Below are positions 36,132 to 62,723 of a DNA stretch of 64,000 nt, one piece after another. Where the stretch lies: IMG/VR virus record IMGVR_UViG_3300031576_000025, positions 1 through 64,000 of that record. One strand, given 5' to 3'. This stretch comes from a virus. The stretch's first letter is position 1. Every line of letters starts with the position of its first letter. Under the pieces are notes generated by a model. It saw only the letters and a list, made by a program, of their open reading frames with translations, did not search any database and was not told the origin of the DNA. A program made the position numbers and the translations under genes.

Positions 36132-36153
36132 CGCCAACGTGAGGACCAACCCT

Positions 36154-39100: not shown

Positions 39101-41121
39101 CCGTGGGCAGCGTCCAGTCCGGGGCTTGGGCCGTGTCCGTCAACAACGCGGCCGGGGCTTCCGCCGTCAACGTCCAAGACGGCGGCAACAGCCTGACCAT
39201 TGACGACGGCGGCGGCTCTATCACCGTGGACGGAACCCTGACCGCCACCGTTTCAGGCAGCACCATCGTGGTCCGCAACGGCATCGGGTCCGACGCGGTG
39301 AACGTGCAAGACGGCGGCAACAGCATCACCGTGGACGCCGCAAACCTAGACGTGCGCGACCTGGTATTTTCCACGGACAAAGTGGACGCCAGCGGGTCCA
39401 CCCTGGGGGCCAACAGCGGGGTGGATATCGGGGACGTGACCATCAACAACGCGGCCGGTGCCGCTTCGGTCAATGTCCAAGACGGTGGCAACAGCCTGAC
39501 GGTGGACGCTGCCGACCTTGACATCCGCAACCTTTCCAGCGCCCAGGACAGCGTGGCTGCCACCCAGTCCGGGGCGTGGGCCACGTCGGTCAACAACGCC
39601 GCTGGCGCTTCGGCCGTAAACGTGCAGGACGGCGGGAACAGCTTGACGGTGGACGCTGCGGACTTTGACGTGCGGGACCTTTCGAGCGCGCAGGACACGG
39701 TGGGGTCCGTGCAATCCGGTGCCTGGACCGTGACGGCCAACGCCGGGACGGGCAAGTTCAACACCACGGGAAGCACCGTGAATGTGGCGAACCAGGAAGG
39801 CACGAGCCTTGCCGTGAACGACAACGGCGGCAGCTTGACCGTGGACGGCGCGGTGACCGCCAACGCAGGCAGCGGGACCTTCGCCGTGGACAACGCCGCT
39901 GGCGCGTCCGTTTCTGTGGACGACAACGCGGGCAGCCTGACCACGGACACGCCGCAGCTTCCCGCCTCCCTCACCGGGTCCGGCAACCTGAAGGTTTCCT
40001 TGGCCGAATCCAGCGCGGTGCAGGCGGTGTCCCAGTCCGGCACCTGGAACGTGGGGCTGTCCGCCGGGTCCAACAACGTGGGCACGGTGTCCGGCAGCAC
40101 TATCGTGGTCCGAAACGGCATCGGCGTGGACGCGGTCAACGTGCAGGACGGCGGCAACAGCCTCACCGTGGACGGCACCGTGACCGGAAACCAGGGCACG
40201 GCCGCAGCCCAGTCCGGCCGGTGGCCTATGTTCCTTTCCGACGGGACCAGCGAACGCGGGACCGCCAGCAACCCACTACGCACCGACCCCACCGGGACCA
40301 CGCCGCAGCCTGCAAGCCAGTCCGGCACCTGGGTGCTTGGTTCCAACAGCGGGGTGGATATCGGGGACGTGACCGTGAACAACGGCAGCGGTGCCGGTGC
40401 GGTCAACATCCAAGACGGCGGCAACAGCGTCACGGTGGACGCCGTGGACCTTGACGTTCGGGACCTGGCCTTTGGCAGCGACAGCGTGACCGCGCACCAA
40501 GGCGGCGCGTGGTCCGTGTCGTTGGCTGGCGGCAGCGCCAGCATCGGCAACGTGTCCGGTTCCACTATCGTGGTCCGCAACGGCACCGGCGCTGACGCCG
40601 TGAACATTCAGGACGGCGGCAACAGCCTGACGGTGGACGCCACCAACCTGGACGTTCGGGATTTCGCCTTCGCCACCGACAGGGTGGACACCAGCGGCAG
40701 CACGCTGGGCGCGAACAGCGGCGTGGACATTGGCGACGTGACCGTGAACAACGCCGGTGGCGCGTCCGCGGTCAATATCCAAGACGGCGGGAACAGCCTG
40801 ACCGTGGACACCGCCGGTGGCGCGCTGTCCGTGGAAGGCCAGGGCTATACCGCCCCGGCTATCGGGACGTTCACCGTCACCACCAGCGCGTCGGCAATCT
40901 TCATTGCCAACGCCAGCGCGGTTGGGCGTGAAGTCTGCAACGAAGGTGGGGCGCAAATCCGAATCGGCACGGCCGCCACCCTGACCACGGCCGTGGGCCG
41001 CCTGCTGGACCCTGGGGCCTGCTACGTGCTGGACAGCCTGCACCGCTACTTCCGCGGCGCGCTGTCCGCCATCGCCGTGACGGGCACGGCCAAGGTGACG
41101 ACCACGGAGCTGACGCCGTAA
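36154..41121 (+). CDS. giant beta-strand repeat protein (about 1655 aa) with signal peptide
   Basis: MKKPAAVAVVAGILLAAFGSLWPLRA signal peptide; many VNVQDGGNSLTVD, LDVRDL, QSGAWTVTANAGTG and RLSDG.AFYKATTP repeats. Confidence 0.85.
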   Translation: MKKPAAVAVVAGILLAAFGSLWPLRAEDELARRDGNRTPVMLGVVEGTGEIRMIRTTPDGAVIMSPASGSPSQAVNQGTAGAQEWPVKTKKGTSSMDVSGSTVGVSGSTVTVQTDPAHPINVNVVAGTINAGVSGSTIIVTGSTVNVVNVVSAPLHVNVVSGSISAGVSGSTVHVKNENGGTLAVSANNLDVRDLSFATDKADVTGSAVQVSNAGGVAAVNVQDGGNVLSVDDAGGSLTVDGTVAATQSGAWTVTANAGTGTQATDPVDRAARALGRAFLRDPTNTFNMGSAAAPVRVDTVGVTTAPVSVDSLPLPAGAATESTLSTINGKLPASVAADRTAAGAPSASRLSDGAAFYKATTPSDVQPISATALPLPAGAATSANQATSNGSLSSIDGKLPATVAADRATAGAPSAARLSDGTAFYKATTPSDTQPISAAALPLPAGAATETTAATIAGDTTSLDAKVPSQGQATMAASLPVAIASDQSALPVTQSGAWAVTANAGTGKFNTTGSTVNVTNQEGTSLAVNDAGGALTVDAVNLDTRDLTFAADKVDASGSTLGANNGVDIGNVTVDNTGGAGAVNVQDGGNSLTVDDGGSSLTVDGTVTANAGTGKFNTTGSTVNVANQEGTSLAVNDNGASLTVDASNLDVRDLSSSQDSISAVQSGAWTVTSHQGTAAAQSGRWPMFLSDGTNERGTDTLPLRVDPTGTTTQPVSGTVTSNAGTGTFNVQATAASPAAARLSDGAAFYKATTPADTQPISAAALPLPSGAATAANQSTANGSLASIDGKLPAALTGSGNLKVSLAESTAVQAVSQSGAWTVTANAGTGKFDTTGSTVSIHGSTIQVRNAFGESLNVGDGSGPLTVDGTVAATQSGSWSAAVNNAAGASAVNVQDGGNSLTVDAADLDVRDLTNASDSVTSHQGGAWTVTANAGTGKFNTTGSTVNIANQEGTSLAVNDNGGSLTVDASNLDVRDLSSAQDTVGSVQSGAWAVSVNNAAGASAVNVQDGGNSLTIDDGGGSITVDGTLTATVSGSTIVVRNGIGSDAVNVQDGGNSITVDAANLDVRDLVFSTDKVDASGSTLGANSGVDIGDVTINNAAGAASVNVQDGGNSLTVDAADLDIRNLSSAQDSVAATQSGAWATSVNNAAGASAVNVQDGGNSLTVDAADFDVRDLSSAQDTVGSVQSGAWTVTANAGTGKFNTTGSTVNVANQEGTSLAVNDNGGSLTVDGAVTANAGSGTFAVDNAAGASVSVDDNAGSLTTDTPQLPASLTGSGNLKVSLAESSAVQAVSQSGTWNVGLSAGSNNVGTVSGSTIVVRNGIGVDAVNVQDGGNSLTVDGTVTGNQGTAAAQSGRWPMFLSDGTSERGTASNPLRTDPTGTTPQPASQSGTWVLGSNSGVDIGDVTVNNGSGAGAVNIQDGGNSVTVDAVDLDVRDLAFGSDSVTAHQGGAWSVSLAGGSASIGNVSGSTIVVRNGTGADAVNIQDGGNSLTVDATNLDVRDFAFATDRVDTSGSTLGANSGVDIGDVTVNNAGGASAVNIQDGGNSLTVDTAGGALSVEGQGYTAPAIGTFTVTTSASAIFIANASAVGREVCNEGGAQIRIGTAATLTTAVGRLLDPGACYVLDSLHRYFRGALSAIAVTGTAKVTTTELTP

Positions 41122-43866: not shown

Positions 43867-44088
43867 ATGGGCCTTGTCCCCGACCATATCAGCGTAGGCG
43901 CTGACGCGGCCACGCTGACGGCCGCGCAAGGGCTGGTCACGCGCCTGTGTGGCAGCCTGGACGGGCTGCGTGACGCTGGCCTGAAGCTGGCGGACACCTT
44001 CAAGCAGGGCCGCCTGTGCATCACCGTGGACTGGGACGCCGCCAAGCGGACCCAGCCCGGCAACCCGGCCGCGCCGGGAACGACTTAG
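43867..44088 (+). CDS. hypothetical protein
   Basis: Compact ORF within the lysis operon. Confidence 0.55.
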   Translation: MGLVPDHISVGADAATLTAAQGLVTRLCGSLDGLRDAGLKLADTFKQGRLCITVDWDAAKRTQPGNPAAPGTT

Positions 44089-44098
44089 GGGGGGGCGC

Positions 44099-44338
44099 AT
44101 GAACATCAAGGAATTCCTGGAGTCCAAGAAGGCAAAGGGCTTCATTCTTGGCCTGCTTGGCCTGGGCCTGGCGCATTACGGCGGGTTCAGCCAGGAAGAA
44201 CAGAAGAACATCCTCTACCTCGCCGGGCTTTACCTGGGGTCCCAGGGCGTTGCGGACATGGGGAAGGAAAAGGCCAAGGTGGAAGCCGCAGCCGCCGCGC
44301 CGCAGCCCGGTGCGTCAGGCGCGCCCGGCGACGTGTAG
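44099..44338 (+). CDS. putative holin (two TM)
   Basis: ESKKAKGFILGLLGLGL...LAGLYLGSQGVAD. Confidence 0.7.
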   Translation: MNIKEFLESKKAKGFILGLLGLGLAHYGGFSQEEQKNILYLAGLYLGSQGVADMGKEKAKVEAAAAAPQPGASGAPGDV

Positions 44339-44382
44339 GACCCCGGCCACTGGCCGGGCAGTCACAACAACTGGGGGACGCC

Positions 44383-44541
44383 ATGAAGAAAGCCAGGCGC
44401 ACGACGCACCGCAGCAGCAGCGGCAAGAAGCTGCTGGCCAAGCGGGACAAGTCCGGCAAGTTCAGGGACATCCAGACCTGGAAAGGCAGCAGCAGCCGGG
44501 ACCAGCGCAAGAAGCACACCAAGTCCGACCGGGCGCGGTAG
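44383..44541 (+). CDS. small basic protein (52 aa)
   Basis: GGGGGA RBS; MKKARRTTHRSSSGKKLLAKRDKSGKFRDIQTWK; below the ORF-track cutoff. Confidence 0.7.
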   Translation: MKKARRTTHRSSSGKKLLAKRDKSGKFRDIQTWKGSSSRDQRKKHTKSDRAR

Positions 44542-44563
44542 TCGCTGCAAGACGTGCGCGCGT

Positions 44564-44697
44564 CCCGCCCGGTCAACGGGCGGGGCCCGCAGTGGGCCCC
44601 CGCACCCGAAACACCCTCCAGGCCCTGGGTGCCGGGGTCCACTGCGGGCAGCGGCCCTGCCTGCGGATTCCTCGCCGCAGACGGGGTGCTGCCCGCA
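44564..44697. terminator. cluster of GC hairpins between convergent genes
   Basis: Stems 44564-44584, 44585-44649 and 44643-44697. Confidence 0.55.
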
Positions 44698-44702
44698 ACC
44701 CG

Positions 44703-45581
44703 CTAGGCCCGGAAGCCCGGGTGCGCAGCGGCGCAGGCCGCCGCCAGGTGGGTGACGGAAACCCTGGTGTAACGCTGGGTGGTGGTGATGCTGGCGTGGC
44801 CCAGGTAGCCCTGAATCGTCCGAATGTCGGCCCCGCCTTCCAGCATGTGGGTGGCGGCGCTGTGGCGCAGCTGGTGCGGGTGGACCGGCGCGGACAGCCC
44901 GGCGCGCTGCGCAAGCTGGCGCAGCACCCACCACACCGCCGCCCGGTCCAGGGGCTTGCCCCTGGGCGACAGCATGAGGGCTTCGGCGGCCGGGTAGCGC
45001 GCGGCCCGCGCGGCCATGTAGGCCCGCAGGGCGGCCACGGCACGCGGCCCGACCGGCAGCAGGCGTTCCTTCCCACCCTTCCCCTTGACCAGCACCGTGC
45101 TGTGGTCCAGGTCCACGTTCACCACCAGCAGGCCGCAAAGTTCTGACGCCCGCAGCCCGGCCACGTAAAGGACCAGCAGCAGGGCCTTGTTCCGCAGTTC
45201 AATGAAGCGGGTCCCAAAGGACTGGCCCAGCAGGCGGTCCATGTCCGACTGGTCCAGGGACTTGGGCAGGGGCAGCTTCGGCTGCTGCACGGACAAGCCC
45301 ACCGTTGGGTCAACAGCGGCCAGGCCGCGGGCCAGCAGCCAGCGGTGGTACCCGGTGGCCACGGCGACGTCCAGGGCGACCGTGGCCGGGGCCTTCCCAG
45401 CCGCCTGGCGCACGGTCAGGTAGCCCACCACGTCCGAGTGGGCGGCCGTTTCGGCGGCCTTCCCATGGGCCGCCAGGTGGGCCTGGTAGGCCGTCAGCGC
45501 CCTGCTGTAGGTGTCCAGGGTGGCCGGGGAACGCCCGCCCGCCTTCAGGTCCGCCAGGTACGCCGCCAGGTGCCCGTTCAT
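44703..45581 (-). CDS. XerC/D-type tyrosine recombinase
   Basis: AGLRASEL, KGKGGKER, HPHQLRHSAATHMLEGGADIRTIQGYLGHASITTTQRY. Confidence 0.95.
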   Translation of the reverse strand: MNGHLAAYLADLKAGGRSPATLDTYSRALTAYQAHLAAHGKAAETAAHSDVVGYLTVRQAAGKAPATVALDVAVATGYHRWLLARGLAAVDPTVGLSVQQPKLPLPKSLDQSDMDRLLGQSFGTRFIELRNKALLLVLYVAGLRASELCGLLVVNVDLDHSTVLVKGKGGKERLLPVGPRAVAALRAYMAARAARYPAAEALMLSPRGKPLDRAAVWWVLRQLAQRAGLSAPVHPHQLRHSAATHMLEGGADIRTIQGYLGHASITTTQRYTRVSVTHLAAACAAAHPGFRA

Positions 45582-45778
45582 GCCCGCCCCCCGTGCAGCT
45601 GCGCAGCCGCCGCGTCCACGCACGCCAGGTCAGCCGCGGCAATGGACAGGGCGCGCGCGGGGTCCTTGGCCATGTCCACATGATACTGCCCGCGCAGGTA
45701 GCCGTCCAGGGCCAGCTGCGCGGTGGTGTACGACTGCCTGGCCAGCCTGGTCCGCCGGGTCACGGCAGCACCGTCCAT
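45578..45778 (-). CDS. hypothetical protein
   Basis: ATGA-coupled to the recombinase. Confidence 0.55.
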   Translation of the reverse strand: MDGAAVTRRTRLARQSYTTAQLALDGYLRGQYHVDMAKDPARALSIAAADLACVDAAAAQLHGGRA

Positions 45779-46266
45779 TCGCGGGTGCGCACCACGAACA
45801 ACTGCGCCCGGCCCTTCGGCTTGGTCTGCCGGATTTCCGCCGTCACGTTCCATTCGGGCATGGCGTCCTGAAGCGCGAACGCCCGGGCCTTCACCCAGTC
45901 CCCCGCCTTCAGCGCCGCCGACGCCGAACTGCTGCCGGTGACGGCCTGGGTGGCAATGACCTGGCTGCCGTTGCGCAGCGTCACGGTGTAGGTGGACATG
46001 CCAGCCACCAGTTCGCGGATTTTGGAAGCCATGGCCTCGATGGCCCCCGGGCTGCTGTCGCGGACGTGCGACCAGTCGCCGCCCATTTCTAAGGCCGCCG
46101 ACAGGGTAAGCGGGCCGAAGCCGTCGCCCAAGGAGTAAACTTCCCAGTGCTGCGCCGTCGTCAGGGTCTTGCGGTTGTCGCCGTTGAAGTGCAGGTGGGA
46201 CACCACCAGGTCCCAGTTCTTGTTCGCCGCTTCCAGAAGTTCCGACATCTTCGCTGCGCTGCCCAT
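45760..46266 (-). CDS. hypothetical protein
   Basis: G-run RBS; follows a consensus promoter. Confidence 0.75.
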   Translation of the reverse strand: MGSAAKMSELLEAANKNWDLVVSHLHFNGDNRKTLTTAQHWEVYSLGDGFGPLTLSAALEMGGDWSHVRDSSPGAIEAMASKIRELVAGMSTYTVTLRNGSQVIATQAVTGSSSASAALKAGDWVKARAFALQDAMPEWNVTAEIRQTKPKGRAQLFVVRTREWTVLP

Positions 46267-46309
46267 TTTCGCCCCCCGGCCGGGCCTTGCCCGGCTTGCC
46301 TACACCTTC

Positions 46310-46337
46310 AGTATAGCCTGTTACTGGTAATTGTCAA
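46310..46337 (-). promoter_or_regulatory. sigma70 promoter with operator
   Basis: TTGACA-16-TATACT; inverted copy of 46693-46720. Confidence 0.85.
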
Positions 46338-46406
46338 GACCCAAAAAGGTCCTATGCCGTCCCCGACGGCCCCCGGGCCACGCGGCCCAGGGGCGGGGAC
46401 CGGCGG

Positions 46407-46574
46407 CTACCCGCCCCCCCCTTCCTCCACTTCGGCCCCCGCTTCCAGGCGCGGCTTTTCGTCCGTCGTCGCCCGCATCAGCGCCGACTCAAGCAGCGCG
46501 GCGTCAATCTTCAGGTACGCCGCCAGCGCAACCAGCACCGCCTTGCCTTCCGCTTCCAGCTTCATCTTGTCCAC
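46407..46574 (-). CDS. small hypothetical protein (55 aa)
   Basis: MDKMKLEAEGKAVLVALAAYLKID...; own promoter, hairpin and G-run RBS. Confidence 0.6.
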   Translation of the reverse strand: MDKMKLEAEGKAVLVALAAYLKIDAALLESALMRATTDEKPRLEAGAEVEEGGGG

Positions 46575-46620
46575 TTTCCGACCCCCTGGCCCGACCTTGC
46601 CGGGCCTGCCCTACATGGAA

Positions 46621-46649
46621 AGTATAGACGGATTACTAGCCATTGTCAA
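46621..46649 (-). promoter_or_regulatory. sigma70 promoter with degenerate operator
   Basis: TTGACA-17-TATACT containing GCTAGTAA. Confidence 0.8.
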
Positions 46650-46692
46650 GACCCAGGCCGCCGGTCCATAGGACCTACGCAGAAATTGGGCC

Positions 46693-46720
46693 TTGACAAT
46701 TACCAGTAACAGGCTATACT
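46693..46720 (+). promoter_or_regulatory. sigma70 promoter with operator
   Basis: TTGACA-16-TATACT containing TTACCAGTAA. Confidence 0.85.
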
Positions 46721-46771
46721 TCGGGTATGGAAGCGAACGCCGCGGGCAAGGCCAGCGGAAAGGGGGCGAAC

Positions 46772-48037
46772 ATGGACGACGCGAAGAAGCTGGAAACGCT
46801 GGGCGAGATGTCGCACAGCGCGTGGTCGGGCCGCGGCACGTTGCAGCAGTTGGTGGACGAGCTGAAGCGGCAGGCGGCCAGCAAGGTGGATTTCGTGGCC
46901 GACACGCGCAGCCTGCGCGTGGACGCCGTGGCCGCGGTCCCCGCGGTGACGGAGGGCAAGAAGGTTGTCACGGTCGGGAAGCCCGGCAGCCTGCGCTTGG
47001 CCCCCGCGGACCTGCGCACGGGCGAATGGCTGCCGAAGGCGGGCCTGGGCATCCGGCCCAACGCCTTGGAGCAGCTGGGCCAGGCGCAGAACCCCGGAAT
47101 CCCCGGCGGCTTCCTAAAGGACCTGGCGGGACTTCGCCCGGCCCGCGCCGCCGACCTCCTGAACGGGCTCATGGCCGACGGCCCCAGCCGCCGGTTCATC
47201 CGCTGCCTGGACGGCAGCGTGCGCGCCGCCATGTCCGACCGCTACCGCGTGCTGGACAGCCTGGACATCGCCTTTCCCACCCTGGAAGCGGCGCGTTCCG
47301 TGGGCGCGGAGGTGCTGGAAGCCAACCTGTCGGAAACCCACATGCGCCTGAAGCTCATCTGCCGCAACGTGTGGGACGCCGTAGAAATGCGCCGCCAGCA
47401 GGGCGGCAGCTGGTACGCGGGCGGCCTGGGGAACCAGGACTACCTGCGCCACGTGTCCGCCAGGTCCGAGGGCGACCTGCCCGGCGGGCCCGGCACGGTG
47501 TACCCCGTCGTCACGGTGTCCAACAGCGAAACCGGAAACGGCGGCTTCAACGTCCGCATCGGCATCATGATGGGCATTTGCTTCAACCTGGCCACCGTCG
47601 AGGACGTGGTGGCGCGGGTCCACCTGGGCGAACGCCTGGACACCGGCATCTTCAGCGCGCAGACCATGGGCCTGGAGTCCAAGGTCATCCTCGCCAAGGC
47701 CCGGGACGCGGTGGTGGCGGCCTTCAACAAGGACGCCTTCGGCCGCATCGTGGCCGCGGCCCGCAAGGCGCAGGGGGACGCGGTGCAGGCCCCCACGGCG
47801 GCGGTGCAGAACGTGGTCAAGGCGGCCGGGCTGTCCGACAACGCCAAGGACGCCATCCTGGAGCACTTCCTGCGGGATTACGACCAGTCCCGCTTCGGGC
47901 TCGCCCAGGCCGTGTCCCGCCACGCGCAGGACACGCAGGACCCGAACACCGCGGACACGCTGGAGTCCCTGGCCGGGGACCTGCTGCGCGGCGGCAACAA
48001 GTATGCGCACGCCGCGCTGAACGCGGCGGCCAAGTAG
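46772..48037 (+). CDS. DUF932-like protein
   Basis: RAAMSDRYRVLD...VSNSETGNG...ICFNL; alternative start at 46727. Confidence 0.75.
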   Translation: MDDAKKLETLGEMSHSAWSGRGTLQQLVDELKRQAASKVDFVADTRSLRVDAVAAVPAVTEGKKVVTVGKPGSLRLAPADLRTGEWLPKAGLGIRPNALEQLGQAQNPGIPGGFLKDLAGLRPARAADLLNGLMADGPSRRFIRCLDGSVRAAMSDRYRVLDSLDIAFPTLEAARSVGAEVLEANLSETHMRLKLICRNVWDAVEMRRQQGGSWYAGGLGNQDYLRHVSARSEGDLPGGPGTVYPVVTVSNSETGNGGFNVRIGIMMGICFNLATVEDVVARVHLGERLDTGIFSAQTMGLESKVILAKARDAVVAAFNKDAFGRIVAAARKAQGDAVQAPTAAVQNVVKAAGLSDNAKDAILEHFLRDYDQSRFGLAQAVSRHAQDTQDPNTADTLESLAGDLLRGGNKYAHAALNAAAK

Positions 48038-48046
48038 CCGGGCTGG

Positions 48047-48075
48047 CGGCGGGGCCCCTAGAACGGGGCCCCGCC
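48047..48075 (+). terminator. GC hairpin after DUF932 gene
   Basis: GGCGGGGCCCC / GGGGCCCCGCC stem; no clear U tract. Confidence 0.45.
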
Positions 48076-48137
48076 TGCACAGCCGGACGCCTGCGACGGG
48101 GGGCGGGCGTCCAGCCGGGCAGGCCCAGGGGGACGAC

Positions 48138-48356
48138 ATGGCGCTCAAGGCGGGTGACGTGGTGCGCAGGGCGGCGCGGGCAGGGGACACCCTGGTGCCG
48201 TTGCTGGTGTACGGGCTGGTGGCGGACGACAGCGGCAGGCTGCGCGCGGAGTTGTTTATTCGCCTGCCGGGAGGCGCGCCCGGGTCCTGGGCCGGGTGCC
48301 TGTCGCTGCGCAGACTTCGGCCCTGGGACACCGCGAAGGACGGGCCGCTGGCATGA
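48138..48356 (+). CDS. hypothetical protein
   Basis: G-run RBS; coupled to next gene. Confidence 0.6.
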   Translation: MALKAGDVVRRAARAGDTLVPLLVYGLVADDSGRLRAELFIRLPGGAPGSWAGCLSLRRLRPWDTAKDGPLA

Positions 48357-48736
48357 AGCCGCGCACCAGGACATACGGGCCCGGGTGGGACGGGACCAGC
48401 AGAACCGAGCATTACGTCTGGCTGGACCGGGCCGGTCAGTCAACAACCTGGTCCGGCACGCGCTGGGCCATGATTCCTTTGCAGGTACGCCGCGCGCTGG
48501 TCCCGGTGCTGCCTATCCCTAATACGAACCACGGAAAGCGGCTTGTCAAGGTGGTGCTGACCGTGACCGAAGCGCGCGAGCTGCTGGGCGTTGCTGGCAA
48601 TGGCTACATGGACGGGGATTACTACCAGTTGAACAACGAAGGCCACCCGCCGACGGCAGAACAGAAGGCCGCGAACGAAGTATACAGCAGGGCGGAATCC
48701 AAGCTGCGCGCGGCCACCAACGGGACGGCACCATGA
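48353..48736 (+). CDS. hypothetical protein
   Basis: ATGA coupling on both sides. Confidence 0.6.
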   Translation: MKPRTRTYGPGWDGTSRTEHYVWLDRAGQSTTWSGTRWAMIPLQVRRALVPVLPIPNTNHGKRLVKVVLTVTEARELLGVAGNGYMDGDYYQLNNEGHPPTAEQKAANEVYSRAESKLRAATNGTAP

Positions 48737-49137
48737 GCGCAGCCACGGACGCGCTGGACCGCCTGTACAGCAAGCTGCCGCGGCTGGACTGCCAGGGCAA
48801 GTGTCAACAGTCCTGCGGCCCCATTGCCATGGGCCAGGCCGAACTCGCGCGGCTGACCAAGCGGCTGGGCTACGTGCCGCGGTGGCCGGGCGTGGTGGCG
48901 GCCGTGACGCTGGCGGTGCTGGGGGCGGAAAAGGCCCTGACCTGCCCACTGCTGGATAAGGGCACCGGGCGCTGCACCGTGTACGCCATCCGGCCCATGC
49001 TGTGCCGCCTATGGGGCCTGGTGCGCGCCATGGCGTGCCCATGGGGGTGCGTGCCTACGCGCTGGCTGACGGACGACGAGGCCACGGCGCTGCTGGGCGC
49101 GGCCAGGCGGGTGGTGCCGGACGGGGGCGGGGCGTGA
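48733..49137 (+). CDS. YkgJ-family Cys-cluster protein
   Basis: CQGKCQQSCG...CPLL...CTVYAIRPMLCRLWG. Confidence 0.85.
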   Translation: MSAATDALDRLYSKLPRLDCQGKCQQSCGPIAMGQAELARLTKRLGYVPRWPGVVAAVTLAVLGAEKALTCPLLDKGTGRCTVYAIRPMLCRLWGLVRAMACPWGCVPTRWLTDDEATALLGAARRVVPDGGGA

Positions 49138-49473
49138 CCGCCAAGCCCGAGGTGTCCTGGCTGGCCAGGCTGGTGTGCTGGTGGCGCGGGTGCAGCCGCT
49201 ACTTTATCGAGCAGCCGGACCCTGACCACTGGTGGGTCAGGTGCAGGCGGTGTGGGCGGGTAAGCTGATGGGGAAACGGCAGCGGCGGCGGCTGAGCGCG
49301 AACAGGCTGCGGCGCGGCCGGGAAGCCGTGCTGGCAGCCATGCGCGCGCCTGAACCACCGGCGGCGGTGAAGCCGGACTGTACGCTGTGCGGCAAGCCAA
49401 TGGACAGGCGGGGTGAACTTCCGTGGCACCGGCCGTGCGGGTTGGAAAACGGGGTGGAATTTTAGGGGGGCGC

Positions 49474-50352
49474 GTGGCAAAGGAACACTTCAAGGATTGG
49501 GACCCCAGCGACGGTTCGCAGGACCGTCTGGAAAAGGTGCTGGACGTGCTGGCCCAGTACGCGGGCATGGACCTGCGCATTACGCTGCGCCAGCTTTTCT
49601 ACCAGCTGGTATCCAAAAACTTCATCGCCAACAAGCAGCGCGAATACAAGAACCTTGGCGAGCTGCTGTCGCGGGCGCGGCTGGCCGGGTTGGTGGACTG
49701 GGGGGCCATCGAGGACCGCATCCGGCAGCCGGACAAGCACGCCGAATGGGCCGACATCCCCGACCTGGTGGAATCTGCCGTGTCGTCCTTCCGCCTGCCG
49801 CGCTGGTCTGACCAGGAATGCTGCGTGGAACTGTGGTGCGAAAAGGACGCGCTGACCAGCGTGCTGGAACCTATCACGAACGCGCTGCACGTCACCTTGA
49901 TGGTGAACCGCGGCTACAGCAGCCAATCGGCCATGTACGAAGCGGCGCAGCGGTGGGCGCGCTCCGCGGACGACGGCAAGAAAAACATCCTGCTGTACCT
50001 GGGGGACTTCGACCCGTCCGGGCAGGACATGGTGCGCGACGTGCGCGACCGTCTGGCCATGTTCGGGCAGGAAGTGGACGTGCGCAAGCTGGCGCTGAAC
50101 CCCGACCAGGTGGCGCGTTACGGGCTGCCGCCCAATCCGGCCAAGCTGACGGACAGCCGCGCCGCAGGATTCGTTGCGAAGCACGGCGGCAGCAGCTACG
50201 AGGTGGACGCGCTGCCGCCGGATGTGCTGGCGCAACTGGTGCGCGGGGCAATCGAGGACACCATGGACATGAAGCTGTACGCCGCCTGGCGGGCCCAGGA
50301 AAAGGTGCTGAAGGCCAAGCTGGTGGCGGTGGCGAAGGCTACGAAGTGGTGA
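49474..50352 (+). CDS. Toprim protein, Spo11/TopoVI-A/JetD-like
   Basis: TLRQLFYQL (winged-helix Tyr), WCEKDAL, RGYSS, YLGDFDPSG, EVDAL. Confidence 0.8.
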   Translation: MAKEHFKDWDPSDGSQDRLEKVLDVLAQYAGMDLRITLRQLFYQLVSKNFIANKQREYKNLGELLSRARLAGLVDWGAIEDRIRQPDKHAEWADIPDLVESAVSSFRLPRWSDQECCVELWCEKDALTSVLEPITNALHVTLMVNRGYSSQSAMYEAAQRWARSADDGKKNILLYLGDFDPSGQDMVRDVRDRLAMFGQEVDVRKLALNPDQVARYGLPPNPAKLTDSRAAGFVAKHGGSSYEVDALPPDVLAQLVRGAIEDTMDMKLYAAWRAQEKVLKAKLVAVAKATKW

Positions 50353-50570
50353 CCGACGACGGCGGCGCGCAGCCGCCACGCCAGCGGCGGCACAGCTGGC
50401 GCTACGCTAGGGTGTGGGACTCCCGCTATGGCTGCCACCGCTTGACGTGGCAGGCCACCTGCCGCGCGTGCGGACTGACCATGTGGCGCAAGCATTTGCA
50501 GGGCCGTGGGCCGGGCGAGCCATGCCCCGGGTGGGTCTAAAGACCCGGGCCGCATGGGTCCTTGTGGGCC

Positions 50571-50598
50571 TTGCGCTTTACTGGTAGAAGGCTAAACT
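50571..50598 (+). promoter_or_regulatory. promoter with operator in reverse orientation
   Basis: TTGCGC-16-TAAACT containing TTACTGGTA. Confidence 0.6.
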
Positions 50599-50639
50599 GT
50601 GGGTGTGTGGCGGGCAAGGTCCGCCGGGGGGAAGCTGGA

Positions 50640-50861
50640 ATGGACGCTATTGGCGCGGTGTTCGACGTGGTACGGAAGGACTGGCGCGCGTACTTCGGCG
50701 CGCCGGTGCGGTCCATGACGCTGCGCGCGGCGGCTTGCGCACGGGAACTGCTGTGCCCCCGGTGCAAGGTGGCCATGTCCGGGCTGACGCACGCCGGGCT
50801 GCTGGGCGCGGAATGTCGCACCTGCCGCAGCGTGTTTATTCAGCCGGTTGGGACGGCCTGA
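50640..50861 (+). CDS. small zinc-ribbon protein
   Basis: CPRCK...CRTCR; hairpin and G-run RBS upstream. Confidence 0.6.
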   Translation: MDAIGAVFDVVRKDWRAYFGAPVRSMTLRAAACARELLCPRCKVAMSGLTHAGLLGAECRTCRSVFIQPVGTA

Positions 50862-50868
50862 CGGCGGC

Positions 50869-50898
50869 TTGACTTGGGCTAGTAACCTGCTGTACCAT
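50869..50898 (+). promoter_or_regulatory. promoter of HTH gene with operator half-site
   Basis: TTGACT-18-TACCAT containing GCTAGTAA. Confidence 0.55.
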
Positions 50899-50936
50899 GG
50901 GTGCAGCGGGACAACACAAAGGACGGAGGACTGGCG

Positions 50937-51170
50937 ATGGCAAAGACGGCGAAGCACGAGTACACAACGGCGCAGCGCAAGCGCGGGAAGGAATTTCTGG
51001 ACTGGCTGAACGGCAAGGGCTGGACGCAGGATTCCTTCGCCCGCGACACCGGCATAAGCGTGGACACCATCCGCAAGTGGTGCGGCGGCACCGACCCGGA
51101 CAACATGGCCCGCATCGTCCTGCGCAACCGCTGCCCCGACTGCCCGCTGCTGGTCCAGAAGGTCGCCTAG
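50937..51170 (+). CDS. XRE/Cro-like HTH regulator
   Basis: GWTQDSFARDTGISVDTIRKW; GGAGGA RBS. Confidence 0.85.
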   Translation: MAKTAKHEYTTAQRKRGKEFLDWLNGKGWTQDSFARDTGISVDTIRKWCGGTDPDNMARIVLRNRCPDCPLLVQKVA

Positions 51171-51213
51171 ACCAAGGAACCAGTGCCGCAGTCCAGCAGC
51201 GCCACCACAGGAC

Positions 51214-51256
51214 CGGCGCGCCCGCGTGACCATAAGCGGGCGCGTACCGTTTTTTT
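51214..51256 (+). terminator. intrinsic terminator
   Basis: GCGCGCCCGC / GCGGGCGCGT stem followed by T7. Confidence 0.7.
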
Positions 51257-51289
51257 GCCACCCCTGACCAACCAAAGGAGAACCCGACA

Positions 51290-52252
51290 ATGGGCGAAGA
51301 ACTAGAGACAGCGCCGGAACAGCAATTGGAAACGGTGCCCACGGACAAGGCACCCATGACGTTCAACGAGGACCGCATCAACGCGCTGATTCACCTAGCC
51401 GAACGCAGCGAAGTGCTGGGCAAGGCGCTGGACACGCTGCGCGCGTTCGTGCTGAAGCGCGCGCTGCCCGGCGACTGGGTGAAGTTCGCGCAGGAAGGCG
51501 GGGACGCCTACCTCGAAATGGGCAGCGCCGGGGCCGACCGTATCGCCGCCGTGCTGGGGATTTCCTTCACTGGCTGGTCCAGCGAAAAGGTGCTGGGCAG
51601 CGACGACTACGGGGCCAAGTTCGATTGGTGGTACCGCTGCAACGTCCACTTCCAGGGCCGCACCATCGAAGGCATCGAAGGCCGCTGCGGCAGCCGGGAC
51701 AAGTTCTTTGGGTTCAGCCATGGGACCTGGAAAGACCTAAAGGACGTGCGCGAAACGGACATCCGCACGGCCGCCCGCCGCAACGCCATGAAGGAAGGCG
51801 TCAAGGTCATGCTGGGCATTCGGCGTCTGCCCATGCAGGACGCCATCAAGATGGGCCTGCCCGCGGACGTAATCAAGGGCCACACCTTCGCCAACAAGGC
51901 CGACCACGGCGGCACGCAGGCCGCGGCTGCCGGGGCCGCGGCGGGGTCCGGCGGCGGCAGCGCGGGGACCATGGAAGCCACCGAAGTGGTGGTGGACGTG
52001 ACGAACAAGACGGGCGGAACGCCCACGAAGCCATGGACCAAGTTCTTCATCAGGACCATGGGCGGCACCGTCTACAACACGTTCGATAAGGACTTCGCGC
52101 AGGCGGCCAAGGACGTGAAGGGCACCGGCCAGAAAGTCCTTATCAGCTTCATCGTGAACCAGTACGGCAGCGAGGTCAAGTCGCTGAAGGCCGCGCCGGA
52201 CAAGCCCGCGGGGGCCCCGGCCCAGGGCACGCTGCCGGGGACCGAAGCGTGA
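51290..52252 (+). CDS. probable ssDNA-annealing protein with C-terminal OB-like domain
   Basis: Directly upstream of the exonuclease; AAAGGAG RBS; family assigned mainly by context. Confidence 0.55.
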   Translation: MGEELETAPEQQLETVPTDKAPMTFNEDRINALIHLAERSEVLGKALDTLRAFVLKRALPGDWVKFAQEGGDAYLEMGSAGADRIAAVLGISFTGWSSEKVLGSDDYGAKFDWWYRCNVHFQGRTIEGIEGRCGSRDKFFGFSHGTWKDLKDVRETDIRTAARRNAMKEGVKVMLGIRRLPMQDAIKMGLPADVIKGHTFANKADHGGTQAAAAGAAAGSGGGSAGTMEATEVVVDVTNKTGGTPTKPWTKFFIRTMGGTVYNTFDKDFAQAAKDVKGTGQKVLISFIVNQYGSEVKSLKAAPDKPAGAPAQGTLPGTEA

Positions 52253-53283
52253 CCGACGCAGCCGCGCAGCCAGGCGCGGCAACAGAAGCCGACCCCGCCA
52301 CCACGGCGCTTTCCGTGGTGGCGGCGTTGGCGGCTGAAATCGAAACCAAGCGCAACGCCATGCTGCTGGCGACAATCACCAATCGCCCCAAGCAGAACAG
52401 CTGGGCCAGCCAGGTGTCCGCCTGCAACCGCCAAAACGTCTACAGCATCCTGAACTGGGAGGACCGGAAGCTGCACGACATACGCCTAGCGGCGCGGTTC
52501 AAGGCTGGCAACGACCAGGAAAGGATTATCCTGCGCGAACTGAACGAACTGGGCTTCGACGTTGTGGAAGGGCAGGCCACGCTGCCCACCGACATGACGG
52601 CCGCCTACCGGGTGTCCGGCCGGATTGACGGGAAGCTGCGCTACATGGGGCACCGAATCCCTTTTGAAGTGAAGTCCTGCCACCCGCGGATTTTCGCCAA
52701 GCTGGAAAGAATGTCCAACGCCGACGCGCTGGCGTTCATTTCCGCAGACCGCTACATATCCTCCCACCTTAAGCAGTTCAGCCTGTACCTGTTCGGGCAC
52801 AACGAGGAAGCGGGGCTGCTGCTGTACACGGACTGCATGGGCCATTGGAAGCTGGTCACGGTCACGCTGAACTACGCGCTGGCCGAATCCGTGCTGGACC
52901 AGCTGGACCTGGTGAAGCGGTACGTGGAGGCCAAGGAATTGCCAGACCGGATTCCTTACGACGAGGACCTGTGCGGCGGGTGCAGCTTCCTGCATATTTG
53001 CCTGCCGGACGTGGTGCGCGCGGAAACGCAGCTGGTGGACGACCCGGCCACGGTGGTTGCGCTTGACCGCCGCGCGCAGCTTTCCGCGCCCGCCGACGAA
53101 TACGAGGAACTGGACAAGGCGCTGAAGGAAAAATACCGCGGGACGACGCGGAAGATTTTGGGCGGGAAGTGGGTGGTGGAATCCAAGGAAGTGCTGGTGA
53201 AGGGCAAGCCGCAGTGGCGCACGACGTTCAAGGTTCTGGACCAGCAGGAAACGGCGGAAGCCGCGGACGCGCAGCAGGGATAG
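52249..53283 (+). CDS. Cas4-like PD-(D/E)XK exonuclease
   Basis: SACNRQ, SGRIDG...FEVKS, Q...Y, CGGCSFLHIC. Confidence 0.85.
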   Translation: MTDAAAQPGAATEADPATTALSVVAALAAEIETKRNAMLLATITNRPKQNSWASQVSACNRQNVYSILNWEDRKLHDIRLAARFKAGNDQERIILRELNELGFDVVEGQATLPTDMTAAYRVSGRIDGKLRYMGHRIPFEVKSCHPRIFAKLERMSNADALAFISADRYISSHLKQFSLYLFGHNEEAGLLLYTDCMGHWKLVTVTLNYALAESVLDQLDLVKRYVEAKELPDRIPYDEDLCGGCSFLHICLPDVVRAETQLVDDPATVVALDRRAQLSAPADEYEELDKALKEKYRGTTRKILGGKWVVESKEVLVKGKPQWRTTFKVLDQQETAEAADAQQG

Positions 53284-53373
53284 CCGCGGTCTTTCGGCGG
53301 CCTGGCCGCCAGTGGACCGCGGACGTGCGGTGGCAGCAAGGCTGCCGCCTTGGACGCAGCAACGGAGGAGTTC

Positions 53374-54105
53374 ATGTGGCAAGACAGAATAACCGTGGAA
53401 GTCGGGTACCCACGCCACCCCAAAACAATCACCCTGATTCAACGTCTTGGAAACGGTGCCGACGCCATACCCGTCCGGCTTTGGTGCTGGGCGGCCGAGT
53501 TCAAACCACAGCATGGAAAGCTGGGGAACCTGGACATGGACCCCAGCGAGGTGGAATCGCTGGTGGATTGGTGGGGGGAACCGGGGGCGTGCTTCAACGC
53601 CATGCTGGGGCTGTTCATTGACCGCAACGAGGACGGCTTCTACCTGCACGACTGGGGCGGACATCGGGGCCACGTCACGACCTACCACGAGCGCGCGAAG
53701 GTGGCGGCCAATACGCGCTGGGCGCGCCACAAAGCCATGAAGGCAGCCAAAGAAGAACGCGCCGCGGCCGGGCGCAAGGCTTCGCAGCCAGCGATAGACC
53801 TAGTGGACCGCCTGGTTGGGCTCATGCTGAAGAACGACCCCAATGCGCGCGTGCCTGGCAAACCGGCGGCATGGCAGCAGGATGCCGAAAAGCTGCTGAC
53901 GACGGACGGCCGCGGCGCGAAGGAAGCAACCGCGGTTCTGGAATGGTGCCAGCGGTCAACCTTCTGGCGCAGCAATATCCTCAGCATGGGCAAGTTCCGC
54001 GCCAAGTATTCGCAGCTATTGCTGCGGATGCAGGACGAGGGGAAGGAATCGGTAAATGGTCCCGTTGGGTCAGCAGCCCCGGTGGCGGGCAAGTATGCCA
54101 AGTGA
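53374..54105 (+). CDS. phage replication initiator protein
   Basis: HPKT..L...LWCWA...LHDW N-terminus; FWRSNILSMGKFRAKY C-terminus; precedes the loader. Confidence 0.8.
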   Translation: MWQDRITVEVGYPRHPKTITLIQRLGNGADAIPVRLWCWAAEFKPQHGKLGNLDMDPSEVESLVDWWGEPGACFNAMLGLFIDRNEDGFYLHDWGGHRGHVTTYHERAKVAANTRWARHKAMKAAKEERAAAGRKASQPAIDLVDRLVGLMLKNDPNARVPGKPAAWQQDAEKLLTTDGRGAKEATAVLEWCQRSTFWRSNILSMGKFRAKYSQLLLRMQDEGKESVNGPVGSAAPVAGKYAK

Positions 54106-54826
54106 AACCGGGGACCTGAAGGCCGCTGGGGACTGCCTCCCGGAAGATGCGCTGACGGCGCAGCCGGACGCGGTGGCGGTGGAATGCGGAGCGTGCGGCT
54201 ACCCGTTGCGGGTCGGCGTGTGCGAAAAGTGCGCCGAAGATAAGGACAAGGAACTGGCCGCGCAGCGGCAGCACATGGCCGACCTTGGCGGGCAACGTCC
54301 GTACAATTCCTTCACGCTGGACAAGTACCTGGTGACGGCGACGAACCGCGCGGTGGTTGACGCGCTGCGCGCCTTCGACCCGGCCAAGGACAACTTCTAC
54401 CTGCTTGGCCCGACCGGCACAGGGAAGTCCCACCTGGCCGTTGCCGTCGCCCGCCTGTTCTGGCCAAAGCTGCGCCCGCTGGTGCGCAAGCCCACCGAAG
54501 TGACCCGCGAAGCGCGGCCGAACGGGCGGCCGGGGACCAGCACCGAAGCCGACACGATAGGCAAGTATGCGCGCTGCCGCGTGCTGGTGCTGGACGACCT
54601 GGGCGTGGAACGGGACAGCCAATTCACCCACCAGGTCTTTTACGAAATCATCGAGGGCCGCTGCCTTGCCGAACGAAACGGCCTAATCCTGACCAGCAAC
54701 CTGGGCCTAAACGACCTGGCCAAGAAGCTGGGCGACGACCGCATAACGTCCCGATTGAACGGGCTGTGCAAGCTGCTGGACCTGACCGGGGAACCGGACA
54801 GGCGCGCGGCGTGGCAGGCGACGTGA
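54095..54826 (+). CDS. DnaC/IstB-like helicase loader ATPase
   Basis: GPTGTGKSHLA, LVLDDLG, LTSNL, DRITSRL. Confidence 0.9.
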   Translation: MPSETGDLKAAGDCLPEDALTAQPDAVAVECGACGYPLRVGVCEKCAEDKDKELAAQRQHMADLGGQRPYNSFTLDKYLVTATNRAVVDALRAFDPAKDNFYLLGPTGTGKSHLAVAVARLFWPKLRPLVRKPTEVTREARPNGRPGTSTEADTIGKYARCRVLVLDDLGVERDSQFTHQVFYEIIEGRCLAERNGLILTSNLGLNDLAKKLGDDRITSRLNGLCKLLDLTGEPDRRAAWQAT

Positions 54827-55015
54827 ATGCGGTTGCCAGCTGGATAAATCGGGACGGCAGCATGACCGTGCTGTGCATCGGCTGCGGGTTGACCGCCAAG
54901 GTTCTGAAACCAGTGCTTGACGCCATGCCGGACCAGGCCGCGCCGTTCGGGCCTGGGGAATTTGACCACGCTTGCAGGGCTGTGCTGCCAGGTTCCGGGC
55001 GGCCTGGGGGCAGCA

Positions 55016-57164: not shown

Positions 57165-57574
57165 CCAAGACTATCAAGGCCCTGTCGCTTAAGCAGCCGT
57201 GGCTGAACTGGGTGCGCGACGGACGCAAGACGATTGAAACGCGCACGTGGACTACCAAGCACCGCGGGCCGCTGCTGCTGGTTGCGTCCAAGTCCGTTGA
57301 CAACGAAGCGGCGCTGCTTGACGACGTGACCGCGGACCACGTGTATGTCACCGGCAAGTCTATCTGCCTGGTGGAACTGCTGGACGTTCGGCCAATGACC
57401 GAAGCGGACGTGGCCGCAGCCATGTGCCCGTGCAGCCCCGGCCGGTTCGCCTGGGTGCTTGGCCTGGTGCAGCCGATTGTCCCTGTGCCAGTGCGCGGCC
57501 AGCTGAACATATTTGACGTGCCGCTGACCGCTGACGTGGCAGCTATCATTGCGAACTGGGAGGACGGGAAGTGA
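57161..57574 (+). CDS. ASCH domain protein
   Basis: ALSLKQPW...GRKTIETRTW...HRGPLLL. Confidence 0.92.
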   Translation: MTKTIKALSLKQPWLNWVRDGRKTIETRTWTTKHRGPLLLVASKSVDNEAALLDDVTADHVYVTGKSICLVELLDVRPMTEADVAAAMCPCSPGRFAWVLGLVQPIVPVPVRGQLNIFDVPLTADVAAIIANWEDGK

Positions 57575-58744: not shown

Positions 58745-58769
58745 GTCTACCGACCCAACGTCCTGGGCC

Positions 58770-58798: not shown

Positions 58799-58834
58799 CC
58801 TAGTACAGCCGCGTCAAGGACCGGCGGGGGAAAA

Positions 58835-62688: not shown

Positions 62689-62723
62689 TAATTTAGGCCC
62701 GGCAAGACCGGGCGGGGGGACGT

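Follow-up and report, generated by a model that had tools for sequence, protein, structure and literature searches.

The nearest described architecture to the element examined here is the PeSL cassette of the T4-type phages RB49 and phi1, a composite of ~100 bp repeated in the non-structural region, in which a consensus sigma70 promoter and a GC stem-loop lead to a Shine-Dalgarno (SD) sequence and start codon at the 3' end; these cassettes lie mostly before ORFans, and near-identical copies could recombine (Arbiol et al. 2010, PMC2839356). The element in question is likewise a repeated composite in a non-structural region, made up of a sigma70 promoter, a spacer motif, a leader hairpin and a ribosome-binding site (RBS), and it recurs in an uncultured, temperate phage represented by the IMG/VR virus record IMGVR_UViG_3300031576_000025. 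The window analysed is the first 64,000 bases of this linear record of 82,218 bp, whose completeness is estimated at 78%. A preliminary description of the window had proposed the module, and our analysis confirmed that this repeated arrangement of promoter, palindrome and hairpin is real.

PeSL elements differ from the module in the placement and nature of the stem-loop. The PeSL stem-loop is placed in the promoter spacer or spans the -10 box and was shown to terminate upstream transcription, no invariant loop is described for it, and the elements carry an AT-rich upstream element in virulent phages (PMC2839356), whereas the copies here have a TGGGYC upstream element and belong to a temperate phage. 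Here the hairpin lies in the predicted transcribed leader by the RBS, its loop is invariant, its stems covary, and a palindrome occupies the promoter spacer. Across the -10 box itself, 4/8 promoters have no more than an imperfect repeat whose pairing depends on G-U. Comeau et al. reportedly carried out further work on PeSL cassettes in 2014 (PMC4122927).

The closest proven form of a two-layer regulon is the Aca2/Aca1 system, in which the regulators bind an inverted repeat at the promoter and a hairpin at the RBS; such paired sites precede a number of adjacent operons, and further RNA motifs are found between genes of one operon (PMC13551039). For Aca2, control of translation or stability was shown, the effect being translational repression through a blocked RBS, and for Aca1 binding was shown (PMC13551039). 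The present locus resembles this arrangement in having the inverted repeat TTACCAGTAA in four promoter spacers, together with six promoter-linked and two intercistronic hairpins. In the Aca systems one helix-turn-helix (HTH) protein binds both DNA and RNA, and modelling suggests that Aca1 grips the stem-loop much as it does DNA (PMC13551039), whereas the hairpin stems here are GC-only, differ between copies and contain no TTAC/GTAA. Since the stems are variable and unrelated to TTACCAGTAA, recognition would have to be of the loop.

Three further kinds of system share single features with the module. The lambda N/boxB system resembles it in that early transcripts of temperate phages carry small GC hairpins with purine-rich loops, and in a small arginine-rich partner, which here is only proposed (PMC11480772, PMC9074901). 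It differs in that no boxA, no terminator excess and, among the proteins run, no N family was found here, and in that the loop is probably a C-G-closed triloop and not a GNRA-like pentaloop. Lambdoid phages have two nut sites at varying distances, compared to eight sites fixed beside RBSs here. The start-associated repeats SAS and ESAS of Cluster K mycobacteriophages are similarly found at a subset of genes, in the non-structural half of temperate phages and nearly all in one orientation (PMC3203893), and their function was still open in 2025 (PMC12699233). SAS is a linear 13-bp word that includes the SD, and the ESAS inverted repeats do not covary and were read by the authors as DNA sites (PMC3203893). 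The SAS word given there is absent from the cassette leaders, the shared RBS letters being the G-run only. Phage P1 has many C1 operators, which form a scattered operator regulon. The stoperators of Cluster A mycobacteriophages are likewise one short DNA word at many promoters, placed to block polymerase (PMC9283540). Compared to such scattered operator regulons, the phage here has two word classes in a fixed spacer place, with none seen inside genes.

Results

A family of near-consensus promoters with conserved spacer words

The record holds eight paralogous near-consensus sigma70 promoters, seven of them within the window (Table 1). A consensus scan of the whole record returned 12 sites with at least 10/12 consensus letters, and six of these belong to one family, with -35 boxes starting at 2352(+), 46337(-), 46649(-), 46693(+), 58770(+) and, beyond the window, 67471(+); 50571(+) and 50869(+) are weaker members of the same repeat family (D19). 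Seven promoter-like sites lie in 44000-63900, compared to 1.8 +/- 1.3 in shuffles. Alignment of the promoters shows TGGGYC-TTGACA followed by two letters, then a word of nine letters, and a further 5-7 letters before TATACT. The 2352, 46337 and 46693 promoters are identical over 27-35 nt within unrelated flanks, and such identical copies of 27-35 bp lie up to 44 kb apart and in both orientations (D19, I1, I4). Three of the phage's eight cassette copies are contained in a divergent control region of 480 bp (46279-46758), where P46693 and P46649 are arranged back to back.

The nine-letter word is TACCAGTAA in four promoters, where together with the preceding T it forms the palindrome TTACCAGTAA, GGCTAGTAA in three, and TACTGGTAG in the weakest; 7/8 promoters have one of two exact words at the same spacer register. 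The four palindrome copies reported in the preliminary description at 2359, 46321(-), 46700 and 58777 all proved correct. The exact word TTACNNGTAA occurs at these four positions in the window compared to a mean of 0.09 in 100 dinucleotide shuffles, none of which reached four, the whole record contains no further exact copy, and every copy lies inside the spacer of a TTGACA-16/17-TATAMT promoter. Three other sites had been described as partial operators (46633, 50578 and 50876). All three are real sites, but 46633 and 50876 carry a distinct conserved word, GGCTAGTAA, and not a degraded palindrome; this word is found exactly three times in the 82-kb record (46633, 50877 and 67479, the last outside the window), always inside a promoter spacer. 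When one mismatch was tolerated, TTACNNGTAA showed no enrichment (7 sites vs 7.6 +/- 3.0 in 30 shuffles), and it is thus the exact copies and where they lie that carry the claim. Between P58770 and P46693 the palindrome is kept while 5/7 other spacer letters differ, which is what selection on the word itself would give.

We accept the spacer word as a putative protein-binding site. The plain reading would be a repressor operator, because anything bound there would sit between the -35 and -10 boxes. No CI-like repressor was found among the open reading frames (ORFs) run against Pfam, PHROGs or NCBIfam, a comparison that did not extend to ~18 kb of the record or to the part of the genome, estimated at 22%, that is missing from it.

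The inverted arrangement of two of the promoters could instead indicate an invertible switch. Promoters P46337 and P46693 form the 35-nt inverted repeat I1 (46310-46344 with 46686-46720, 97% complementary), which adjoins the integrase gene, and these arms might be tyrosine recombinase sites that flip a 341-bp segment carrying P46649 and the 55-aa gene. We regard this as scarcely credible, since each arm is a complete promoter that faces outward and has a leader, RBS and gene of its own, and 27 nt of the arm have further copies with no partner nearby, one at 2351 and one, 78% identical, at 58769. A single source contig spans 45144-48091 in the reference orientation with no joint listed inside 46310-46720, although contigs cannot exclude a rare form.

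Several other features accompany the promoters. P2352, a copy 44 kb away from the other promoters, has a perfect TATAAT, and the ATG at 2387 sits 7 nt past the -10 box, so the message for the hydrophobic 73-aa protein encoded there (gene to 2608) is probably leaderless. Palindromes of the form GGTC/GGCC...GACC/GGCC lie 13-24 nt upstream of several promoters (46663-46675, 50533-50546, 58744-58755 and L097:3445-3456), one palindrome of the GGTC/GACC type stands midway between P46649 and P46693, and GGTC-N3-5-GACC occurs 11 times in the record. A nested 37-nt hairpin of the same type (53285-53321) precedes the intercistronic hairpin at 53329. The GGTC/GACC-type palindromes could be T-less terminators or a second protein site. 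At least 4/8 promoters also have an imperfect inverted repeat whose left arm is the -10 hexamer and whose right arm covers about +1 to +8; its several G-T pairs mean that the arms would pair as read-through RNA and not as a DNA palindrome.

Table 1. Promoters, leader hairpins and selected genes in the window, with positions counted from its first base; bits are scores of the covariance model and kcal/mol are folding energies.
Feature	Position	Strand	Details
P2352	2352..2379	+	TTGACA, 16-nt spacer, TATAAT; TTACCAGTAA at 2359-2368; 27 nt identical to P46693; no hairpin
P46337	46310..46337	-	TTGACA, 16-nt spacer, TATACT; TTACCAGTAA at 46321-46330; 11/12 consensus letters; drives the 168-aa ORFan 46266-45760, then the integrase downstream
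P46649	46621..46649	-	TTGACA, 17-nt spacer, TATACT; GGCTAGTAA at 46633-46641; drives 55-aa acidic ORF 46574-46407
P46693	46693..46720	+	TTGACA, 16-nt spacer, TATACT; TTACCAGTAA at 46700-46709; drives DUF932-like gene
Weak copy	50571..50598	+	TTGCGC, 16-nt spacer, TAAACT; one-mismatch palindrome TTACTGGTAG at 50578-50587; 67% identity (D19); drives zinc-ribbon-like ORF 50640-50861
Weak copy	50869..50898	+	TTGACT, 18-nt spacer, TACCAT; GGCTAGTAA at 50877-50885; GGAGG RBS; no CAAGG hairpin
P58770	58770..58798	+	TTGACA, 17-nt spacer, TATACT; TTACCAGTAA at 58777-58786; drives 109-aa ORFan 58835-59164
Repeats spanning the -10 box	46299-46315(-), 46714-46730(+), 46606-46624(-), 50888-50912(+)		imperfect inverted repeats
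Leader hairpin	46279..46295	-	7-bp stem, C-AAG-G; 1 base from G-run SD 46272-46277; ATG 46266; 32.0 bits; -13.7 kcal/mol
Leader hairpin	46588..46606	-	8-bp stem including one G-U, C-AAG-G; 1 base from GGGGG 46582-46586; GTG 46574; 32.9 bits
Leader hairpin	46740..46758	+	8 positions, one G-A mismatch, C-AAG-G; 3 bases from GGGGG 46762-46766; ATG 46772; 28.2 bits; -9.9 kcal/mol
Leader hairpin	50608..50626	+	8-bp stem, C-AAG-G; abuts G-run; ATG 50640; 31.6 bits
Intercistronic hairpin	53329..53349	+	9-bp stem, C-AAG-G; no promoter; 14 nt before GGAGG; ATG 53374; 28.3 bits
Leader hairpin	58808..58825	+	7 pairs, one bulged C, C-AAG-G; abuts GGGGG 58826-58830; ATG 58835; 25.1 bits; -7.8 kcal/mol
Intercistronic hairpin	62697..62713	+	6-bp stem, 5-nt loop CAAGA; no promoter; abuts GGGGGG; ATG 62724; 29.9 bits; -11.1 kcal/mol
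Examples of G-run SD sites	23741, 26926, 27428, 41880, 44099, 44383
Tyrosine integrase	44703..45623	-	Phage_integrase, E 1.2e-43; downstream of P46337
DUF932-like gene	46772-48037	+	phrog_1362; one homologue named 'DUF932 domain-containing' by its source
Arginine-rich candidate trans factor	49268..49465	+	65 aa (77 aa from GTG 49232); in P46693 operon
Zinc-ribbon-like ORF	50640-50861	+	73 aa; Zn_ribbon_TFIIB E 2.5e-4, below cut-off
Replication-initiator-like gene	53374-54105	+

Leader hairpins share an invariant loop beside the ribosome-binding site

Eight sense-strand leader hairpins were found in the record, seven of them in the window, with GC stems of 6-9 pairs and a loop that always begins C-A-A-G. 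When both strands of the record were searched for C-AAG-G on a stem of seven or more pairs, six sites emerged, five of them directly before an early-region start codon and the sixth inside a late gene (24093-24111). Permitting one mismatch or bulge added 46740-46758 and 58808-58825, and a copy with the loop CAAGA lies at 62697-62713. The hairpins reported previously (46279, 46588, 46740, 50609, here 50608-50626, and 58808, with the CAAGA variant at 62697) are thus all present, and two copies go beyond them: 53329-53349, and 67509-67527 behind the eighth promoter (67471) outside the window. In the CAAGA copy, which begins 8 nt past the upstream gene's stop codon, the fifth loop letter is A, so that the closing pair is lost and C-A-A-G is retained. 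The pair beside the closing pair is U-A in 58808-58825, compared to G-C or G-U in the other copies. A worn ninth copy, GGGCAGGCCC, one A short and with a weak stem, was also seen directly before the RBS of 48138.

The eight hairpins were aligned without gaps by anchoring them on the loop, the rows having been picked because they form hairpins. The C, A, A and G are invariant in 8/8 rows, 87.5% of stem cells are paired, and 7/8 pairs show changes on both sides. None of 500 shuffles reached the observed pairing or covariation score, sliding the partner columns abolished the signal, and RNAalifold independently predicted the same helix. The proposal that the stems differ while pairing is kept and the loop is conserved is therefore borne out, with all copies on the sense strand. 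G-U cells outnumber A-C/C-A cells by 5 to 2, a balance that leans towards sense RNA over DNA.

We built a covariance model from the eight hairpins and scanned the record with filters off. The eight scored 25.1-32.9 bits and the next best of the 83 listed matches 16.7 bits, indicating a discrete set of eight and not the top of a continuum. All model matches of at least 25 bits (8/8) are in sense orientation and no more than 45 nt upstream of a start among 88 crude gene starts, a space that makes up 2.4% of strand positions (P ~1e-13 if sites are independent). In addition, 6/8 promoters, which were defined without reference to hairpins, have a hairpin within 30 nt, compared to 0.013 expected. 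Among the hairpins that abut a G-run upstream of gene starts, 7/8 carry a C-A-A-G loop; the exception, before 57161, has the loop TGCT, as read from the hairpin list.

What all eight copies have in common is their position before the RBS, 0-3 nt before a G-run in 7/8 and 14 nt before a GGAGG in one. The hairpin had been presented as a fixed part of the promoter cassette. Instead, promoters 2352 and 50869 are without a hairpin, the 50869 leader being unstructured (-2.9 kcal/mol), and hairpins 53329-53349 and 62697-62713 are without a promoter and lie between genes of long operons, showing that the two layers are separable and that the hairpin goes with the RBS.

The G-run, which had also been listed as a cassette feature, turned out to be genome-wide. 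GGGGG occurs within 17 nt of the start in 23/88 crude gene starts, late genes included, compared to 1.6% of random windows, and GGAGG-like sites occur at 7/88; because the gene starts are crude, the G-run counts are lower bounds. A run of at least five G is this phage's general SD form. It says something about the host's ribosomes or about pairing through G-U.

The placement beside the RBS would also fit a passive leader hairpin that has no binder, guards the 5' end or a processed fragment from decay and keeps upstream sequence off the G-run SD, its loop being shared through copying of the paralogous cassettes (D19). We consider this possible, though on balance doubtful. It accounts well for the constant sense orientation and the short distance to the RBS, and the G-run is unpaired in every minimum-energy fold, the exceptions being two paired Gs in the leader of 67471 and 1-2 in those at 46267-46303 and 50606-50639. 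C-G-closed triloops also receive a stability bonus, and triloops are mostly purine-rich (PMC9074901). The hairpins start 9-19 nt past the -10 box and have no T-run. With starts predicted 7 nt after the -10 box, they would begin ~3 nt from the 5' end in 50571, 58770 and 67471, as a passive role would have it, but ~7-12 nt from it in 46337, 46649 and 46693, so that 7-12 unpaired bases would precede the hairpin in 3/6 promoter-linked copies. This would be too many for protection against 5'-end-dependent decay. Moreover, the stems diverged at 7/8 pairs with C-A-A-G unchanged in 8/8, whereas drift would be expected to alter the loop as well; the CAAGA copy has lost its closing pair yet keeps C-A-A-G; and promoters 2352 and 50869 manage without a hairpin.

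A PeSL-type shuffling module, in which promoter and stem-loop units move ORFans and the hairpin matters as DNA or as an upstream terminator, was weighed against the same observations. The identical promoter copies 44 kb apart in both orientations are what such a module would leave behind, as are the family-less genes that mostly follow the cassettes (8/9, see below), and PeSLs themselves combine a sigma70 promoter, stem-loop and RBS, flank ORFans and recombine (PMC2839356); the GGTC...GACC palindromes and the imperfect -10-spanning repeat that accompany several promoters could be counted on this side as well. The CAAGG hairpin, however, is downstream of the -10 box and so cannot stop upstream transcription before the promoter, it lacks a T-run, and the sense orientation of 8/8 copies and the excess of G-U over A-C pairs point to RNA. 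Recombination needs sequence identity, which the stems do not have. We thus judge this reading very unlikely. Over 44500-51500 the source-run contigs agree with the window and show no joint between cassettes, although rare forms would escape contigs.

Three other explanations of the hairpin were weighed and rejected. A CsrA/RsmA site does not fit, as the loop GGA recognised by CsrA is present in just 1/8 copies. An N4-type DNA hairpin promoter was set aside for a temperate phage in which no phage RNA polymerase was seen; the template-strand loop here would, moreover, be pyrimidine. Pairing of loop AAGG with the 16S rRNA tail as a split SD has an implausible geometry. In addition, no partner RNA with a CCUUG loop was found: of 16 stem-flanked CCTTG, seven are the reverse strands of the seven stem-flanked CAAGG and the other nine are scattered.

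Candidate binding proteins

The candidates for binding the hairpin or the spacer word are the 49268-49465, 50937-51170 and 50640-50861 proteins and the ASCH protein (57161-57574). The 49268-49465 protein combines an arginine-rich N-terminus with a zinc-finger-like C-terminus (C-x2-C...H-x2-C). Its one homologue, 69% identical with both parts conserved, lies on a 582-bp ENA metagenome contig and is the one sign of a closer relative. Profile matches to C2H2 zinc fingers in PDB are weak (best E 5e-6), and no Pfam or NCBIfam family was assigned. Given the zinc-finger-like C-terminus, this protein could equally be a DNA binder of the asymmetric AGTAA word.

The 50937-51170 protein, weakly HTH-like and 77 aa long, had been put forward as the binder of the palindrome, and we found nothing to link them. 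Its HTH matches are sub-threshold (HTH_3, 18.8 bits vs the Pfam cut-off of 23; phrog_4779, E 2.4e-5), a PDB sequence search was uninformative, and its own promoter, 50869, carries GGCTAGTAA and is the sole early promoter in the window without a hairpin. The 4-bp half-sites of the palindrome TTACCAGTAA have their centres 6 bp apart, a tighter spacing than classical HTH-dimer operators show.

More widely, ten cassette-linked proteins run against NCBIfam gave nothing above cut-off. Of the genes directly behind a cassette or hairpin, 8/9 have no Pfam-A or NCBIfam match above cut-off, and six of these are also without a PHROG match, one not having been run. A search for the 168-aa protein in ESM Atlas gave nothing usable.

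The arginine-rich protein bears on boxB-like antitermination, in which the hairpins would be nut-type sites, and an arginine-rich phage protein on the nascent RNA loop would let polymerase read through terminators, as with lambdoid N. N proteins recognise boxB via an arginine-rich motif and the pentaloop (PMC11480772, PMC9074901). The short GC stems with purine-rich loops of 3-5 nt just downstream of a temperate phage's early promoters fit this picture, as do the copy with an open 5-nt loop, the small protein of the rightward early operon with its arginine-rich N-terminus conserved in its one homologue, and strong GC hairpins between genes, which are without T-runs (e.g. 48038-48137). The zinc-finger-like C-terminus of that protein fits DNA binding equally, though, and no N-family match was found among the proteins run against Pfam, PHROGs or NCBIfam. 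With a 12-nt consensus and up to 3 mismatches, boxA gave 14 matches vs 17.8 expected, none in the leaders, and the sequences upstream of the hairpins share no linear motif. Nor is there an excess of terminator-like sites (23 vs 17.7 +/- 4.4 in shuffles, a count that does not cover Rho sites). Tight spacing to the RBS is not known to be a property of nut sites. Taken together, we find boxB-like antitermination quite unlikely.

Of the strong GC hairpins just mentioned, the two in the spacer after the DUF932-like gene (48038-48137, +) are very strong, and 48038-48140 folds at -70.5 kcal/mol.

Genome context

The record has a G+C content of 66%, and a single public sequencing run matches it, one of cave metagenome DNA that is probably the record's source. 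Among cultured phages, blastn returned just two matches with 2% coverage each, so none is similar at the DNA level. The presence of an integrase gene makes the phage temperate. Late genes occupy 12-44 kb on the + strand and early and replication genes follow from 46.7 kb onward; besides the genes in Table 1, the early region encodes an IstB/DnaC-like loader, DUF5131, a DNA methylase and the ASCH protein.

Three further repeats were noted. A presumed fibre-like late protein is encoded by a 1,660-aa ORF of many diverged repeats (36139-41121, +), with a 33-nt unit repeated 20 times and units of 119-272 nt repeated 3-7 times. Short palindromic repeats form an AT-richer array at 5975-6262, far from the replication-initiator-like gene. 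An identical 16-nt word occurs inside the ORF at 4009 and at 45664 (+), between the integrase and 168-aa genes; one such match is about what chance gives in 82 kb.

Searches for relatives

We searched for relatives of the cassette by DNA pattern and by protein. In the viral contig collection, the DNA pattern of promoter and palindrome gave 0 matches, the pattern of promoter and AGTAA gave 73, all unrelated and mostly AT-rich promoters, and the hairpin core with G-run and ATG gave 23, with stems of 4-6 pairs and none in a like setting. In the metagenome contig collection, promoter and CAAGG matched 19 stretches, all of which have stems of 1-4 pairs and thus lack the hairpin. Used as single queries, neither the DUF932-like protein nor the 168-aa ORFan had a viral contig match, and the arginine-rich protein with its homologue alignment had none either. 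The best homologues of the DUF932-like protein are ~60% identical, and their alignment found 16 viral and 3 Nitrospirota genome loci. Neither visual inspection nor the covariance model revealed a cassette upstream of the DUF932-like homologue loci; the model covered 42 loci with 419,656 bases, and its top score was 20.7 bits (E 0.063). Identity to relatives of the portal protein does not exceed 58%, and in four portal-relative records and one pattern-match record the model scored at most 16.8 bits.

A covariance model had been suggested for use across related phages; it separates the eight copies in this genome, but no related phage with the cassette was found in the collections searched, and all comparative evidence therefore comes from paralogues within one genome. 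Rfam holds no family for the hairpin (two matches at E ~1, far below gathering scores). The literature covered, exclusive of supplementary motif tables, describes neither a C-AAG-G leader hairpin nor this cassette.

Discussion

The elements, their positions and strand, the invariant loop and the covarying stems together make up a finding that is real and tidy. Our tentative preference is for a repressor operator in the promoter combined with a loop-specific RNA docking site, through which translation or stability would be controlled at the neighbouring RBS. A protein on the spacer word would occupy the gap between the -35 and -10 boxes and silence the promoter, and the spacer words would form a scattered operator regulon of the kind that large temperate phages use for immunity. 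If transcription starts upstream of the hairpin, as the promoter positions predict, a trans-acting protein could dock on the loop next to the RBS and, once bound, would jointly adjust how strongly the first cistron in every early unit is translated and/or how long it lasts. A loop-reading protein is favoured because the loop stayed fixed while the stems changed at 7/8 pairs and because the CAAGA copy keeps C-A-A-G, and the position next to the RBS points to control of translation or stability.

A more specific version of the same idea makes the C-AAG-G hairpins docking sites for the 49268-49465 protein, giving a phage-wide post-transcriptional regulon that would switch the leading gene of all early units by antitermination or translational control, atop a separate DNA operator regulon in the same promoters. 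We consider this specific assignment unlikely. The preliminary description had similarly combined DNA and RNA layers in one regulon, and that architecture is a reasonable one, given the experimentally proven precedent of Aca2/Aca1 (PMC13551039), although the two layers here are separable.

Several observations weigh against an operator combined with a protein-read loop. The pair counts are partly circular because the rows were chosen as hairpins, so the case rests on the evidence that is not: the upstream placement, the promoter proximity and the share of C-A-A-G loops among G-run-abutting hairpins. Judged by frequency alone, CAAGG with at least 6/7 flanking pairs makes up 7/356 genome-wide (2.0%) compared to 1.8% for any pentamer. 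The preliminary description had named equal frequency of such hairpins at random positions as a refuting outcome; the model matches of at least 25 bits are confined to the small upstream space. The seven short hairpin leaders fold no better than dinucleotide shuffles (z -0.39 to -1.82), the long spacer 53284-53373 alone doing so (z -3.33), and at 66% GC stability by itself thus proves nothing. A perfect 8-bp C-AAG-G hairpin also lies inside a late structural gene (24093-24111, +); it scores 15.5 bits and is taken as chance-level background. The C-G closing pair and purine triloops are thermodynamically favoured and common, which could partly explain the conservation of the loop (PMC9074901).

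The comparison with proven systems also has its limits. The hairpin stems are unlike the DNA palindrome, whereas modelling suggests that Aca1 grips its stem-loop like DNA. Because the hairpin starts anywhere from 3 to ~12 nt from the predicted 5' end, a role at that end would not be uniform. None of the candidate binders has a family assignment in Pfam or NCBIfam, and a search of public runs found no RNA sequencing run that matches the phage. Finally, the cassette is known from one genome, and the copies compared are all paralogues of common ancestry.

If the hairpin is passive, the module is an ordinary though tidy cassette duplication. If instead it is a tag read by a protein, one small RNA word would set the output of all early operons together at the post-transcriptional level, atop the operator layer, and this would generalise what is proven so far just for anti-CRISPR (Aca) operons. 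The module is also compact, with promoter, operator, hairpin and RBS in ~90 bp and eight natural stem variants, and may possibly be useful as an orthogonal control part.

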